Shown here piece after piece: positions 5,389 through 10,638 of a stretch of 64,000 nucleotides of DNA. Source of the DNA: Candidatus Poseidoniaceae archaeon. Its GTDB lineage: Archaea; Thermoplasmatota; Poseidoniia; Poseidoniales; Poseidoniaceae. Under the pieces are notes generated by a model. That model was given only the letters and a program-made list of their open reading frames with translations. It was not told the origin of the DNA and ran no database searches. The stretch lies in contig CBFIJH010000003.1 in the NCBI GenBank assembly GCA_965662895.1, forward strand, positions 66,318 to 130,317, in the 5' to 3' direction. A program made the translations under genes and the position numbers. How positions within the stretch are numbered: position 1 is the stretch's first letter; every line of letters starts with the position of its first letter.

Positions 5389-7146
5389 TTACTTGTCGCT
5401 CAATACGGACAACATGATGGAATCGAGATTGACCTTTGCCGCATCAAAAATTGCTTCAAGCGATGGATTCTCCTGCTTACGTTTTAATTTCGCACGAGAT
5501 GAAATGAGATTCCACGCTGCCTTTTTTCCAATACCCGGTATGGCTTCAAGCTGCTTTTCTGTAACTGTATTAATGTTCAAATCTGTCTCAACACCCGTGA
5601 TTGAACGTGCGCCATGTCCTGTAATCATAATGTCCGATGTCGTTTCAAGCGGAATGTGATATGTAACGCCAATGAGGATTGGATATGCACCAATTTGACG
5701 ACCGAAGGTAAGTCCTGCACGTCCATGGATACGCTTCCCAACGTGTTCTTCTGTAAGGTGGACAGGTAAACGCGTTCGCCCATCGTGGGTTTCCCAATGC
5801 ACATCTTTGAGAACATGACCTAGAGGAAACAATTCTTGCAGTAGTGGTGAATCGATGGTCTCACGTACAGCCGATTTGAACCGCTTGAACTCAACTTCTG
5901 GAATGTCTTGGAAACCGTCTCCCTCAACTTGCCGAATGTTGATTCTTCGCAACAAAAGTCCTTCATTCCTCAAGGATTGAAGCAGGTTTAGATTCATTTC
6001 ATAGGTTTCAGGACGTTCTCCATTGAGGCCCGCAATAAAATTCAGTCCTGGTAGGAGTTTGGGAAGTCCCCGTTCACCTCGTTCACGACCGTATTGATTG
6101 ATGAGTCGAAGTGCTGTCTTCAATTGATTGGAATCACAATTCAACCAATTTTCAGCATGGACATTTGGATCGGCTGACTCAAGACCGAACGATAAGACCG
6201 CACCATCTGAGAGTGTTTCAACCAACGTTTTCGTAATTTCAGTCGAAGGTTCGATGTTCTCTGCGATAATGGATGGATTCCCGTTATCGGTATGGAGAAT
6301 CTTCAACCGCTCATCTTCTCGTAATCCATGAAGCAGTTTGGCAATAGGTTCAGGATTTGGAATTGGATATTCAAGTTCCTTCACGCCGTCAGCCATGTAG
6401 GTGTAGGTGTCTGTCATTCCACCGAGTCGAACATGCTGAACTCCGGCATCATGAGCGAGTTTAACCTCTCGGATGATGTCTTCGGGCGTTCGCCAAATCG
6501 GAACACCTTTTTTTGGTTCGATGCAAAATTTGCATCCACGCTTGAATCGCACGCAGCCTTGGTAGACCTCTACCTCATAGGTCAGGGGGCCTTTCTTTTG
6601 CTCCATACCCAAATCAGGATGCTGCACGACGGCTTTGCTCTGTGCGCCAAGGTGTGCCCATGTTGTCCATTCCTCGCTTGTTCTCCGCTCATGTTTCCAT
6701 GTCCCTGTATTGAGGAATTGATGCAAGGTTGCATCGGTATCTTGAACAGACAAGAAGAGATTACTCCGAAGCGGTAACCATCCTTGTTGCTTCCAACCGC
6801 GAACGGCCCACCCGCCAAACAATGCAGGAATGTCGCGGGGCAGAGATCGAATCAGCTCAGTCGACTCTCTGCGAGATATCGGCGTTCCTCGAATGTAACG
6901 GCCAGGAACAACAGCACCAGCGATGCAAACGAATCCTTCCAATTCTCTGAGAATCCGGTCTTGTTCTTGCTCGGAGCATAATCGCCACTGATCGATGGTC
7001 ATGTATGTGTAATCGATGTTGTGCTGTTCGAGAACTCCACAAACATAGCGAATATGAAAACCGACGTATGGAGGAACACCAAAAGCGGCTGGTTCGTCCT
7101 CGTACCCATCGAGAACGAGCCAAGAAGGAGAATCGTTCTCTACCAT
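5389..7146 (-). CDS. Archaeal radical SAM protein with C-terminal helix-hairpin-helix (COG1031-like)
   Basis: N-terminal LDGYEDEPAAFGVPPY, Cys triad CVRFKRGCKFC (CX6CX2C), FGRQIGAYPILIG, HhH LEAIPGIGKK. Confidence 0.8.
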   Translation of the reverse strand: MVENDSPSWLVLDGYEDEPAAFGVPPYVGFHIRYVCGVLEQHNIDYTYMTIDQWRLCSEQEQDRILRELEGFVCIAGAVVPGRYIRGTPISRRESTELIRSLPRDIPALFGGWAVRGWKQQGWLPLRSNLFLSVQDTDATLHQFLNTGTWKHERRTSEEWTTWAHLGAQSKAVVQHPDLGMEQKKGPLTYEVEVYQGCVRFKRGCKFCIEPKKGVPIWRTPEDIIREVKLAHDAGVQHVRLGGMTDTYTYMADGVKELEYPIPNPEPIAKLLHGLREDERLKILHTDNGNPSIIAENIEPSTEITKTLVETLSDGAVLSFGLESADPNVHAENWLNCDSNQLKTALRLINQYGRERGERGLPKLLPGLNFIAGLNGERPETYEMNLNLLQSLRNEGLLLRRINIRQVEGDGFQDIPEVEFKRFKSAVRETIDSPLLQELFPLGHVLKDVHWETHDGRTRLPVHLTEEHVGKRIHGRAGLTFGRQIGAYPILIGVTYHIPLETTSDIMITGHGARSITGVETDLNINTVTEKQLEAIPGIGKKAAWNLISSRAKLKRKQENPSLEAIFDAAKVNLDSIMLSVLSDK

Positions 7147-7225: not shown

Positions 7226-8575
7226 TCATCGATTCTTCTTTTTCTTTTCTTCGGCAATGGCTTTCATTTCTCGAGAGGATTTCCCACCGCGAGGCTCTTT
7301 CTTTCCACCGGATTGCGAAATGTCAACTTTTAATCGTCGACCGTTGAGTTCTTTCCCGTTGAGGGCTTTAACGACGTCATCACCCTTGTCTTTCTCATTG
7401 ATAAAGACGAAAGCGAATCCTTTCGGTTTGCCGCCTTTGTCCGTTGCGATGGCAATTTCATTGATCGTCGCTGCATCACCAAAGAATGCAGTAATCGCCT
7501 TTTCATCCGCATCGAATGGCAGGTTACCGACGTAGAGTTTCAATCCCTTTGCCGGTCCTTTCGAACGCTTTTCTTTGTTGTCAGCATCTCGAACACCAAT
7601 GCGACGTCCATGCAAGCGATGTCCATCAAGTTCCTTGATTGCAGCCTCAGCGTGTGATTTTTCCGTGTACGTTACAAATCCAAATCCTCTTGATGCTCCT
7701 GAATCATCGGTCATGACAATGCAATCCGTCATGTCACCATGCTTGCCAAAGAGTTCGCGAAGTTTTTCTGTGTCGACCTCTCGAGGAAGCCCTCCAACGA
7801 ACAAGCGGCACCCTGGCGCTGCTCTCTGTCGACGACCTCCACTCTGACCTTGGCCTACAAACCGGAAATACGTTCGCTCTCGCCCATCTTCACGGACGTC
7901 AGCAGCAATGTATGTTGCGCGACCAGAGGAACCATGAGCAAACAGTTGTTCAGCCTCCTTGCCCCAACGCTTTCCCGAGAGGTTCAATGTGGAGGCACCT
8001 TGCTCCAATTCGGCCCAACCAGCACCGAAGTTATCAGCAAGTGCACGATAACCTTCGTATTCGCACGTTGGACAAGCAACGTTCCAATCACCGTTGACAT
8101 GCGCCTCGAGGGTATCTCCACAGGGGGGACAAATTGCATGCAAAACGCCACAATCATCTCGTTCTCGGAAATCGAGTCGAACAACGGGTTCAATTTCGGT
8201 GACAATCGCACGCGCAACATCTCTTCGTCGTACTGCATCCGCAACGGTGTGAAGGAAGCGATCGACGATTCTCGTGACGTGGAAGTGTCCGTGGAGCTGA
8301 TGCGGAAGAACGTCCCCGCTCTTTCCTTCGACGGCGAGGATGCGTGCTTCACCACCCTTTTCTTGCAGTTTTTCGAATTGGCACAGGACTGTGTCACCAA
8401 TCTGAATGTTAACAATGGATTTTGTAGCGTCAACGATGATGTGTTCGTCTTCAATGCGCATGTAGCCCGTTGTTGTTGCCACGATGTGGTCATCAACAGT
8501 GGTTGTTCCTTCGCCAGCTCGATGTTTGCCGACGGTTCCAATTCTTGTTCCTGGGGTGACGAGGCTCGTCGTCAT
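7226..8575 (-). CDS. csl4: Exosome cap subunit Csl4 fused to two C-terminal RRM domains
   Basis: N-domain VTPGTRIG, S1 domain (IQIGDTVLC...HVTRI...DAVRRRDVARAIV), Zn ribbon GVLHAICPPCG...CPTC...YRALA; then RRM1 (LFVGGL / RGFGFVTY) and RRM2 (LYVGNL / KGFAFVFI) and a Lys-rich tail. Start set at ATG 8575 (ORF track uses GTG 8593). Confidence 0.85.
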   Translation of the reverse strand: MTTSLVTPGTRIGTVGKHRAGEGTTTVDDHIVATTTGYMRIEDEHIIVDATKSIVNIQIGDTVLCQFEKLQEKGGEARILAVEGKSGDVLPHQLHGHFHVTRIVDRFLHTVADAVRRRDVARAIVTEIEPVVRLDFRERDDCGVLHAICPPCGDTLEAHVNGDWNVACPTCEYEGYRALADNFGAGWAELEQGASTLNLSGKRWGKEAEQLFAHGSSGRATYIAADVREDGRERTYFRFVGQGQSGGRRQRAAPGCRLFVGGLPREVDTEKLRELFGKHGDMTDCIVMTDDSGASRGFGFVTYTEKSHAEAAIKELDGHRLHGRRIGVRDADNKEKRSKGPAKGLKLYVGNLPFDADEKAITAFFGDAATINEIAIATDKGGKPKGFAFVFINEKDKGDDVVKALNGKELNGRRLKVDISQSGGKKEPRGGKSSREMKAIAEEKKKKNR

Positions 8576-8671: not shown

Positions 8672-9292
8672 TCATTTTTTCTTCTCGAGACGATAGCATC
8701 GTATGCGGGTCGAAGCCTTGTTTTTTGAGTGATGAGCATAGGCAGCAGGTAGGCGAAAATCGTCCTGATAAATTGAATGCAACGCATAGCCATTGTTGTG
8801 AGCAAGGGGTAAAAGATGCTCAGCACCAATGCTGTGAAGAAAATGAATAATCGGTATTTGCATTGCAAAAACCGTCTCAAAAAACACACGATCTGCGCGT
8901 TGGGTTTGAACACCCCACGGAGGGTTCATGATGGCAATGTCAACGGATTTTTGCAAGTCGATTGGACTTCCGATAACGGTCTGTTCGAGTACCGTGCACA
9001 TTGAATCACCCTCGACATCCTGGACATTTTTTCTCAAGACATCGACGGTTGTTGCGTCACACTCGATCAGCGTAACGTGGGCTGCGCCAAGAAAGGCTGC
9101 ACCTATTCCCAGAACTCCATTTCCAGCACCGAGGTCGAGAACGTGTTTCCCTTCGAATCCATCACCAAGATTGATTTTGGTTAACCATGCAGCGGCTAGG
9201 TTCCCTTCAGTTGGATACTGTTCAAGTTCAACGGAGTTGCATGGGTGTGGAGAAAGTGACGAAAGGCGCATCGCAAGATGCCGTTGACGCAT
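8672..9292 (-). CDS. METTL5-family SAM-dependent RNA (N6-adenine) methyltransferase (COG2263)
   Basis: LEQYPT, DLGAGNGVLGIGA SAM-binding motif, MNPPWG; adjacency to csl4 is a known euryarchaeal arrangement. Confidence 0.88.
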   Translation of the reverse strand: MRQRHLAMRLSSLSPHPCNSVELEQYPTEGNLAAAWLTKINLGDGFEGKHVLDLGAGNGVLGIGAAFLGAAHVTLIECDATTVDVLRKNVQDVEGDSMCTVLEQTVIGSPIDLQKSVDIAIMNPPWGVQTQRADRVFFETVFAMQIPIIHFLHSIGAEHLLPLAHNNGYALHSIYQDDFRLPAAYAHHSKNKASTRIRCYRLEKKK

Positions 9293-9296
9293 GCAT

Positions 9297-9539
9297 TCAC
9301 CAACGTCGCTGTTGACCGAATTGTTGGTTGTTGAATTGTTGTTGCTGTTGCATCTGAGCGGCGTACTGAGCCTGTTGCATGGCTTGTTGATTGCTCATCA
9401 TCAAAGCGATTTGACGAATCTGCTCTGCTTCCATTCGAAGACGTTGGATGAGTTGCTCACCAGGTTGTTGGTTGCCACAGAACCTACAAAATCGCATTCC
9501 ATCGTGCAGGGATTGTCCACAAGCCACACAGAACGCCAT
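9297..9539 (-). CDS. Small zinc-ribbon protein with Gln-rich C-terminal tail
   Basis: FCVACG..L..GMRFCRFCG double CxxC, then QQAMQQAQYAAQMQQQQQFNNQQFGQQRRW; 4 nt from the next gene. Confidence 0.75.
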   Translation of the reverse strand: MAFCVACGQSLHDGMRFCRFCGNQQPGEQLIQRLRMEAEQIRQIALMMSNQQAMQQAQYAAQMQQQQQFNNQQFGQQRRW

Positions 9540-9582: not shown

Positions 9583-10638
9583 TCATTGAACTGCTGTTAG
9601 TTCCATGAACACTGGCCATGTTTCAAACCCAACCGCAGCGGCTCGTTCATTGATAGATTCCCAGCGAGGATCATCAACCATATCACTCGGTTCAACACCA
9701 TTTCCAAGCAGTTCAGTGACCAGAGCACGGAATTCAATTTCGATTTCAGTTTGTGGCTGTTCAGCATCGGCTTGAGGAGCAAGTTCAGCTTCTTCCTCTG
9801 CGATTGCTGGAGGCGGTGAAGTCTGCAATTCCTTCAATTCGTCTCCTGCTGCTTGCATTTCTTCAAATCCATCGGTCGTCGCTTTGGTAATAGCCTCGCT
9901 CACAGACTGTGGTCCCTCATCTCCATCCGATTCGATTGTTGGGAGCGGTACTGATGTCTGTGCAGGTATTGTTACCTCGCTGGCTTCGACGTGTGAAGGT
10001 GCAGGCGCAACTTCGACCTCTTCTGGAATTTGTTCCTCGACAACAACGGGCTCGGGCGTCGCAGGTTCGCTTGCTCTCCCCACGCCGAGGACTTCGGCTT
10101 GTTGTCGAGCCAACTCAGCAGCCTGTCGACGAGGAAGACTAACGAAGCACTTGTTGGGAATGGATGAAGGTGGAAATGGAAGGTAGTACCGTTCGATTGC
10201 TGGGAGACTTGGGTGTCTGAAACAAATCATCGTGATGTTCTCAAATGCTCGTTGTGCAGGGACATCAACCGAAAACGGGACGGGATGGACCGATATCGAA
10301 CCGCGAACCCACTTTTCGCTCGTGACCATGTGCTGCATCCATGGGCCCAAATCGGATGTTGCAAGATCGAGGAACTGGAAAGAAGCATCTCTTGGATTCA
10401 ATCCTTGCTCTTCCAACAAGCGGGCTTCTGCTCGTGGTCGATGAAAAACCCCAATGACGGGTTGTCCATGCTCGACCATATCGCCATGCATTTCGATAAT
10501 TTTTCGCTCTTTTCGTGGACAGATGATCATCACTTGCATTCGCAATGCATCAGAGTCGAAGATGTCGCCCCAGCGATCCTCTGCTTCGGAGAGAAGGCCA
10601 CCGATGGTTGTGCCCGGAATCATTGCTGTTATTCCCAT
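9583..10638 (-). CDS. Hypothetical protein (globular N-domain, Pro/Glu-rich linker, small helical C-domain)
   Basis: 351-aa ORF filling the gap between co-directional genes, 4 nt after the asd stop; no family motif recognised. Confidence 0.75.
   Translation of the reverse strand: MGITAMIPGTTIGGLLSEAEDRWGDIFDSDALRMQVMIICPRKERKIIEMHGDMVEHGQPVIGVFHRPRAEARLLEEQGLNPRDASFQFLDLATSDLGPWMQHMVTSEKWVRGSISVHPVPFSVDVPAQRAFENITMICFRHPSLPAIERYYLPFPPSSIPNKCFVSLPRRQAAELARQQAEVLGVGRASEPATPEPVVVEEQIPEEVEVAPAPSHVEASEVTIPAQTSVPLPTIESDGDEGPQSVSEAITKATTDGFEEMQAAGDELKELQTSPPPAIAEEEAELAPQADAEQPQTEIEIEFRALVTELLGNGVEPSDMVDDPRWESINERAAAVGFETWPVFMELTAVQ

Follow-up and report, generated by a model that had tools for sequence, protein, structure and literature searches.

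Gene structure and domain layout

The window, a 64,000-nucleotide stretch of contig CBFIJH010000003.1 from a Candidatus Poseidoniaceae archaeon, carries on the minus strand at 7226-8575 a gene for Csl4, a subunit of the archaeal exosome cap. In this gene the Csl4 part is followed by a long C-terminal extension containing two RNA recognition motif (RRM) domains, and it is this fusion of Csl4 with RRMs that we analyzed. The source organism belongs to the order Poseidoniales (Marine Group II), in which we distinguish Marine Group IIa (MGIIa, the window's family, f1), Marine Group IIb (MGIIb, Thalassarchaeaceae, f3) and a small family, f2. Poseidoniales are one of the most abundant archaeal groups in the surface ocean, and the source organisms are uncultured.

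The minus-strand frame comprises 449 codons without an internal stop and closes with a TGA at 7226-7228, in agreement with the initial annotation, which had described a single uninterrupted open reading frame (ORF). An alternative in-frame GTG is located 18 nt 5' of the ATG at 8575. Because orthologues from the same genus also open with MTTSLVTPG, the ATG is the likely start. The layout of the gene is given below, with model confidence expressed as the predicted local distance difference test (pLDDT); the coordinates previously assigned to Csl4, RRM1 and RRM2 match this reanalysis within a few bases.

7226-8575, minus strand: whole csl4-RRM coding sequence, start ATG at 8575
8411-8575, minus strand: Csl4 N-terminal domain, residues 1-55 (Pfam ECR1_N at residues 5-41, 27 bits, which is at the cut-off; aligns with PDB 2BA1)
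8156-8410, minus strand: Csl4 S1 (OB-fold) domain, residues 56-140 (NCBIfam NF034126; five AlphaFold2 strands, pLDDT 78-89; aligns with 2BA1)
8018-8155, minus strand: Csl4 Zn-ribbon domain, residues 141-186, CPPC...CPTC (alignment with 2BA1; four cysteines)
7868-8017, minus strand: lineage-specific conserved mid segment, residues 187-236, LNxxGKRWGxEAE ... GRATYIAADVREDGRE (conservation)
7811-7867, minus strand: short low-complexity Gly/Arg-rich stretch, residues 237-255 (pLDDT 31-35; expanded into RGG repeats in MGIIb)
7577-7810, minus strand: RRM1, residues 256-333, RNP2 LFVGGL, RNP1 RGFGFVTY (Pfam RRM_1; AlphaFold2 fold; Foldseek)
7547-7576, minus strand: variable inter-RRM linker, residues 334-343 (mean identity 23%)
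7310-7546, minus strand: RRM2, residues 344-422, RNP2 LYVGNL, RNP1 KGFAFVFI (Pfam RRM_1; orthologous to the single RRM of MGIIb)
7229-7309, minus strand: basic Lys/Gly-rich tail, residues 423-449, with a conserved SSREMKAIAEE helix (AlphaFold2 helix at 434-447; consensus GGKSxRExxAxxEE)

The Csl4 core is complete

The N-terminal part of the protein matches the NCBIfam equivalog profile for Csl4 (PRK09521/NF034126; COG1096) over residues 5-183 with 90.8 bits (cut-off 90), and the same ORF scored 93.5 bits when the frames of the genome were searched with NF034126. Aligned with the 179-residue Csl4 of A. fulgidus (PDB 2BA1, positions 3-177), residues 5-186 match it from one end to the other at an E-value of 1e-10. 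The end of the ribbon, DNFGAG, corresponds to DYGKG of 2BA1, the point at which canonical Csl4 terminates. Because this alignment runs from end to end, the canonical Csl4 is complete at about G186, and 263 residues remain beyond it. Thus, the profile match and the alignment with 2BA1 bear out the earlier description of a complete Csl4 with N-terminal domain, S1 domain and Zn ribbon. The zinc-binding cysteines, C149, C152, C168 and C171, are invariant in an alignment of 71 homologues.

A divergent ribbon was seen at locus L021 (G144:C18), which represents one genus of the same family. Here the motif reads CSNSG...CHTSG, with two of the four cysteines replaced by serine, and zinc binding may have been lost.

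The characterized archaeal Csl4 proteins (A. fulgidus AF0206, PDB 2BA1/3M7N/3M85; S. solfataricus; P. abyssi) have the same three domains in the same order with the same four ribbon cysteines, and each is encoded in single copy beside rrp4, rrp41, rrp42 and DnaG, as is the case here. In contrast, they are about 180-215 residues long and end at the Zn ribbon, while the Poseidoniales protein carries 263 additional residues made up of the mid segment, two RRMs and the basic tail. As judged from the alignments, its 449-residue length is a departure in architecture which leaves the Csl4 core unaltered. That canonical Csl4 stops at the Zn ribbon, as had been stated at the outset, is confirmed both by 2BA1 and by the relatives outside the order.

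The extension contains two intact RRM domains

Pfam RRM_1 (PF00076) matches the extension twice, at about residues 256-333 and 344-422, with an E-value of 6e-38 and a total of 128.9 bits against a cut-off of 20.7; the single-domain scores in the genome search were 78.9 and 57.7 bits. Both of the profile searches proposed in the initial annotation (Csl4 and RRM_1) therefore gave matches above cut-off, and its two RRMs with intact RNP2 and RNP1 motifs were recovered with the same motif letters. The RNA-binding face of each domain is intact, and the RNP aromatics are invariant in 39 family members (F259, F298 and F300 in RRM1; Y348, F387 and F389 in RRM2). Additionally, the RRMs exceed the cut-off of the NCBIfam family NF058537, 'Rbp_regulator' (103.7 against 100 bits).

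An AlphaFold2 model of the window protein, calculated from a 71-sequence alignment, gave moderate to good confidence for the S1 domain, the Zn ribbon and both RRMs (pLDDT 67-89 per ten-residue block). Both RRMs are predicted to adopt the beta-alpha-beta-beta-alpha-beta fold (pLDDT 76-83), and Foldseek matched the tandem to Sxl, hnRNP A1/A2B1, HuD/HuR and PABP with an E-value of 1e-14.

Trees of the RRMs, which rest on an 80-column domain and are weakly resolved at depth, placed MGIIa RRM2 in one clade with the only RRM of MGIIb (support 100/100), grouped RRM1 of MGIIa with the RRMs of family f2 (81/92), and set the free archaeal RRMs apart in their own clade together with a few bacterial sequences. 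Because of the first of these clades, the C-terminal RRM is ancestral to MGIIa and MGIIb. A recent tandem duplication giving rise to RRM1 and RRM2 is not supported, as the two domains side with different partners. The free RRMs closest to RRM1 are a mixture of bacterial and fungal proteins with 41-53% identity. Similarly, the free prokaryotic RRM proteins of the NF058537 type (87-96 residues, from the sister order and other Thermoplasmatota) share the same domain with canonical RNP motifs and are 41-53% identical to RRM1. These proteins stand alone, whereas the Poseidoniales genomes have no free RRM protein in the RRM census described below. The census suggests that csl4 plausibly captured the sole RRM gene of the lineage, the counterpart of the free RRM gene found in the sister order, a capture which the 80-column trees neither prove nor exclude.

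The fusion is conserved throughout the order

The genomes surveyed were 151 from Poseidoniales and 197 others of the phylum (189 plus 8 from the sister order, f4), to which the RRM census added four archaeal control genomes. The fusion gene is present in 149 of the 151 Poseidoniales genomes and in all 22 of the 22 genera, with no internal stops, and the one-contig (closed) genomes G003 and G027 both carry it. Thus, the check on conservation in related genomes that the initial annotation had suggested gave an order-wide result.

The modules of the extension differ between families. MGIIa homologues match over their full length. The MGIIb ORFs (434-455 residues) consist of Csl4, the mid segment, RGG repeats, a zinc finger, a helix, one RRM and an RGG tail, the zinc finger being of the CxxC-x17-CxxC type (Pfam zf_Tbcl_2, PF23477). 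The MGIIb protein therefore has the same Csl4 body, mid segment and gene neighbours as the window protein, and its single RRM is orthologous to RRM2; however, it has the zinc finger and long helix where MGIIa has RRM1, and its tail is of the RGG type rather than Lys-rich. In family f2 the number of RRMs is one or two, and the tail is weakly SHOCT-like. Outside the order, among the 197 other genomes of the phylum, the Csl4 match reaches no further than about residue 185, and most of the stop-to-stop frames that hold it are about 185-260 residues long. In the sister order, which belongs to the same class, Csl4 is 184 residues long and ends just past the Zn ribbon at SSEYGQVQL, and the genomes also encode a free RRM protein of about 90 residues.

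The RRM census gave the following counts; the matches listed for it cover most MGIIa and MGIIb genomes and place the RRMs in the Csl4 frame.

MGIIa (f1): 35 of 36 genomes, exactly two RRM_1 each, inside the Csl4 frame among the matches listed
MGIIb (f3): 18 of 18 genomes, exactly one RRM_1 each, inside the Csl4 frame among the matches listed
Sister order (f4): 8 of 8 genomes, exactly one each, in a free frame of about 100 residues, one of them cut at a contig end
Other families of the phylum: 29 of 189 genomes, in free frames of 80-158 residues
Archaeal control genomes: 0 of 4

According to this census, all cellular RRMs of Poseidoniales reside on Csl4. The counts for the controls and for the other families of the phylum also agree with the earlier remark that RRMs are uncommon in archaea.

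Within the family, mean identity to the window protein is 51% for the Csl4 N-terminal domain, 66% for S1 and 78% for the Zn ribbon, and, in the extension, 78% for the mid segment, 77% for RRM1, 61% for RRM2 and 42% for the tail. We compared the ratio of nonsynonymous to synonymous substitution (dN/dS) of the two parts of the gene, with the caveat that dS is about 1-2, near saturation, and the values are approximate. Compared with four congeners, the extension gave a ratio of 0.034-0.045 and the Csl4 core one of 0.041-0.052; with a more distant congener the values were 0.076 and 0.148, respectively. The extension is clearly under strong purifying selection, similar to that on the core.

The proteins are already public under inconsistent names. 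Database homologues include 'exosome complex RNA-binding protein Csl4' from Candidatus Poseidonia sp. and entries from 'Candidatus Thalassarchaeum', and the full-length ones number in the hundreds. Among the MGIIb copies, many go under 'CxxC-x17-CxxC domain-containing protein', 'hypothetical', 'nucleolin' or 'cold-inducible RNA-binding protein', which masks their identity as the organism's Csl4. Full-text literature searches found no description of a Csl4-RRM fusion, and the architecture is apparently undescribed.

Unusually long frames were recorded in genus g15 of MGIIb (G013, G031, G053, G085), where the csl4 stop-to-stop frames extend to 1059-1106 residues. At locus L010 the likely csl4 ORF is about 430-479 residues long and is preceded by a long stop-free stretch.

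The fused gene is the only csl4 beside a full set of exosome genes

The source assembly comprises 1.86 Mb in 26 contigs and is 92% complete. No second, unfused csl4 was found in this genome, which answers a check raised in the initial annotation: one ORF lies above the NF034126 cut-off, and the weaker match is Rrp4. The only RRM_1 matches in the genome are the two RRMs of the Csl4 ORF. A canonical rrp4-rrp41-rrp42 operon is present, with Rrp41 scoring 323.7 bits against a cut-off of 318.7, and archaeal DnaG, including its N-terminal part, reaches 363.6 bits against a curated cut-off of 300. Since Rrp4, Rrp41, Rrp42 and DnaG are all found, the exosome is complete. The suggestion that the RRM arm might replace DnaG is consequently ruled out.

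A further 3'-5' RNase gene was noted elsewhere in the same genome. A bacterial-type RNase PH is encoded outside the window at C5:136589-137431 on the minus strand (TIGR01966, 240 bits against a cut-off of 141.5). It is a second phosphorolytic 3'-5' RNase in this archaeon, besides Rrp41 and Rrp42.

The two genes flanking csl4 in the window bear on its orthology.

8672-9292, minus strand: small class-I methyltransferase with an NPPW motif, upstream neighbour (Pfam MTS/Cons_hypoth95)
5389-7146, minus strand: radical-SAM protein of 585 residues with a C-terminal helix-hairpin-helix, downstream neighbour (Pfam Radical_SAM, HHH_3)

Among 14 sampled Poseidoniales loci from three families, the methyltransferase lies upstream of csl4 in 13 (it was not found in L022), and radical-SAM homologues, 58-67% identical, lie downstream in 13 (not found in L006). 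In the sister order the same methyltransferase is located directly upstream of the stand-alone csl4. This shared neighbour indicates that the fused gene is the positional orthologue of the ordinary csl4 and not a paralogue. The proposal that an RNA-binding module is hard-wired onto an exosome cap subunit has thus held up: the gene is the only csl4, it occupies the orthologous position, it carries the only RRMs, and it does so throughout the order.

A conserved mid segment precedes the RRMs

The approximately 70 residues between Csl4 and RRM1 had been described as a linker. The stretch does lie between the two, but it is not a mere linker, as it holds a 50-residue segment that is conserved to the same degree as the Zn ribbon. 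Eight positions of the mid segment hold the same residue throughout the order, in MGIIa as well as MGIIb: N198, G201, R203, W204, A208, E209, D226 and R228. They fall within two motifs, LNxxG[KE]RW[GS]xxAE and G.R..Y/F......D.R..G. These invariant residues, together with the 78% identity within the family, rule out a mere spacer.

No Pfam family matched the mid segment, and a search of 1.84 billion representative proteins with a mid-segment profile returned only 25 matches. Those of 387-487 residues hold the segment at the same position, and the two that were inspected (P0253 and P0255) are family members. The short matches were taken for fragments of the Csl4-RRM family. Four of the 25 are spurious, three being repeat or low-complexity proteins and one a chimeric-looking fragment. 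A known domain is therefore rejected for the mid segment, as Pfam gave no match and the profile search found only this family. Among the database proteins, P0258 (219 residues, from a metagenome) joins a non-Csl4 N-terminal part to an MGIIb mid segment and the start of the zinc finger, and probably stems from a chimeric contig or a truncated gene call.

In the AlphaFold2 model residues 188-253 have mostly pLDDT below 50, and the mid segment is likewise low in the models of both MGIIa and MGIIb proteins. Both models show a small local rise in pLDDT near GKRWGKEAEQ. Because the segment is conserved, confined to the lineage and predicted to be disordered alone, it fits a motif that would fold on a partner, which may be the ring, DnaG, aRNase J or RNA.

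The tail of the window protein matched no Pfam family, including SHOCT (PF09851), so a SHOCT domain is not supported for it. Tails of the f2 type behave differently in this search. The last 30 residues of the family-f2 proteins L011 and L012 and of P0255 (SKRELEAMLEEGKITKQEFNDALR and similar) gave repeated sub-threshold SHOCT scores of 14-22 bits against a cut-off of 27 (24 for SHOCT_2), and the window tail retains only the first half of this type of tail (SSREMKAIAEE).

Proposed function and alternative explanations

In Sulfolobus and Pyrococcus, the Rrp4 and/or Csl4 cap binds RNA above the phosphorolytic ring (PMC3672285, PMC4227792). DnaG joins the exosome through Csl4, its docking site (PMC3672285), and DnaG together with Rrp4 gives a preference for poly(A) (PMC3672285, PMC4227792). 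Additionally, the C-terminal domain of P. abyssi Csl4 is required for binding of aRNase J (PMC7144898). Because Csl4 docks DnaG and its C-terminal domain binds aRNase J, the Poseidoniales extension begins at a known cofactor hub. The contribution of the archaeal exosome to specific pathways is still unknown, as stated in PMC7144898. Exosome substrate choice in archaea is an open question, for which an order-wide cap subunit with covalent RRMs gives a concrete hypothesis of substrate capture.

We propose, with a probability of roughly 0.6, that the gene encodes a functioning exosome cap Csl4 whose tethered arm would capture single-stranded RNA near the pore for decay or tailing. In such a complex, the single Csl4 orthologue would cap the Rrp41/Rrp42 ring with Rrp4 and DnaG. 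The C-terminal arm would have been acquired at the base of the order as a docking-type segment, predicted to be disordered alone, followed by RNA-binding modules, which in the window's family would be the two RRMs and the basic tail. The Csl4 body would occupy the cap as usual and the arm would depart from the peripheral Zn-ribbon domain, where about 70 residues should be long enough for it to span the S1 pore. By capturing single-stranded RNA, the RRMs would enrich it around the pore for 3'-5' phosphorolysis or A-rich tailing. In characterized archaea this capture role belongs to the Rrp4 KH domain and DnaG. With at most three Csl4 subunits per cap, a complex could hold at most six RRMs. The RRMs may also be sequence-selective and may supplement DnaG, as the initial annotation had suggested. 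Assembly into the cap, capture of RNA for the exosome and a binding partner for the mid segment are what we infer here.

Several points weigh against this proposal. The Csl4 score barely clears its curated cut-off (90.8 against 90), and Rrp4 and Rrp42, despite being the top matches, score below the cut-offs of their equivalog profiles. DnaG, the Rrp4 KH domain and S1 already provide RNA binding, which leaves the need for more unexplained. Finally, the protein might not assemble into the cap, and the RRMs might act elsewhere than at the pore.

An artefact, in which mis-assembly, two-gene read-through or a gene-calling error joined csl4 to a separate RRM gene, is extremely improbable and was rejected. 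Of 151 independent assemblies, 149 have the same open frame without internal stops, single-contig genomes among them, and dN/dS stays at 0.03-0.05 across the junction region. Given the hundreds of full-length homologues in the databases, the presence of the gene in 149 of the 151 genomes of the order and the dN/dS of 0.03-0.05 in the extension, the fusion is not due to chance. Alternatively, the protein might serve mainly outside the exosome. It would then be a moonlighting RNA chaperone, that is, a glycine-rich, cold-shock-like RRM protein comparable to bacterial and cyanobacterial Rbp or to CIRBP, with S1 as just another RNA-binding domain and a cap made mostly of Rrp4. The match to 'Rbp_regulator' is in line with this, as are the MGIIb RGG tails, which resemble those of glycine-rich RRM proteins, and the JGI label 'cold-inducible RNA-binding protein' on some copies. 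Moreover, with no free RRM protein in Poseidoniales genomes, any role of an RRM protein must sit in Csl4-RRM. However, strong purifying selection maintains the Zn ligands and each of the three Csl4 domains, and the genomes, which retain Rrp41, Rrp42, Rrp4 and DnaG, have no other Csl4. DnaG requires Csl4 to enter the exosome in the archaea studied (PMC3672285), and synteny marks the gene as the cap-subunit orthologue. We therefore regard a function chiefly outside the exosome as improbable.

Slightly less improbable, but still unlikely, is an arm that regulates or gates the complex instead of recruiting substrate. It might occlude the S1 pore, attach the complex to ribosomes or to the membrane, or replace or modulate a cofactor site (DnaG, aRNase J) on the Zn ribbon. 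The extension starts at the very domain by which P. abyssi Csl4 binds aRNase J (PMC7144898), the mid segment with its invariant acidic and basic residues and tryptophan (E209, D226, R203, R228, W204) appears to resemble a protein-binding motif, and the weakly SHOCT-like f2 tail is a possible oligomerization motif. In contrast, the invariance of the RNA-contacting RNP1 and RNP2 aromatics argues for selection on RNA binding itself, and every family keeps at least one RRM while other modules come and go.

A bolder, and to us doubtful, reading takes the fusion as a 'Rosetta stone'. The free RRM proteins encoded in the sister order and in other archaea would be exosome cofactors, their bacterial counterparts may serve PNPase in the same way, and Poseidoniales would have made the link permanent, with the mid segment as a new docking motif on the ring or on DnaG. 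If true, exosome substrate selection of the RRM adaptor type would exist in archaea and would either predate or parallel the eukaryotic system. Csl4-RRM is a naturally tethered system suited to reconstitution and gives a lead on the role of the free prokaryotic RRM proteins.

Comparison with other RNA decay systems

In the eukaryotic exosome adaptors, such as RBM7 in NEXT and Nrd1-Nab3, RRMs select or deliver RNA as parts of separate polypeptides, which reach the exosome via helicase complexes (Mtr4). No fusion to a cap subunit is involved, whereas the Poseidoniales RRMs share a polypeptide with one. The likeness to eukaryotic RRM targeting that had been drawn earlier therefore stands as an analogy of principle. 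It does not extend to the separate, helicase-bridged adaptors themselves, and no homology is implied beyond the RRM fold. Bacterial PNPase has a phosphorolytic ring of the RNase PH type with covalent KH and S1 domains above the channel. It is similar in that RNA-binding domains are tethered to an RNase PH ring system; however, its KH and S1 domains are on the catalytic chain, while in Poseidoniales the RRMs are on a separate cap subunit. DnaG of S. solfataricus likewise puts an extra RNA-binding module on the cap via Csl4 (PMC3672285, PMC4227792). DnaG is a separate protein with a Toprim domain and its own RNA-binding domains and is still encoded here, whereas the RRM arm is covalent and of unrelated fold.

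Neighbouring genes

The radical-SAM protein downstream of csl4 (5389-7146, minus strand) is more conserved than Csl4, and no specific radical-SAM family was assigned to it. Directly upstream of the methyltransferase-csl4 pair, two further genes lie on the same strand. The one at 9297-9539 (minus strand) encodes an 80-residue protein with an N-terminal zinc ribbon and a Gln-rich tail. The other, at 9583-10638 (minus strand), encodes a 351-residue protein with an acidic Pro/Glu-rich centre, which had no Pfam or NCBIfam match.

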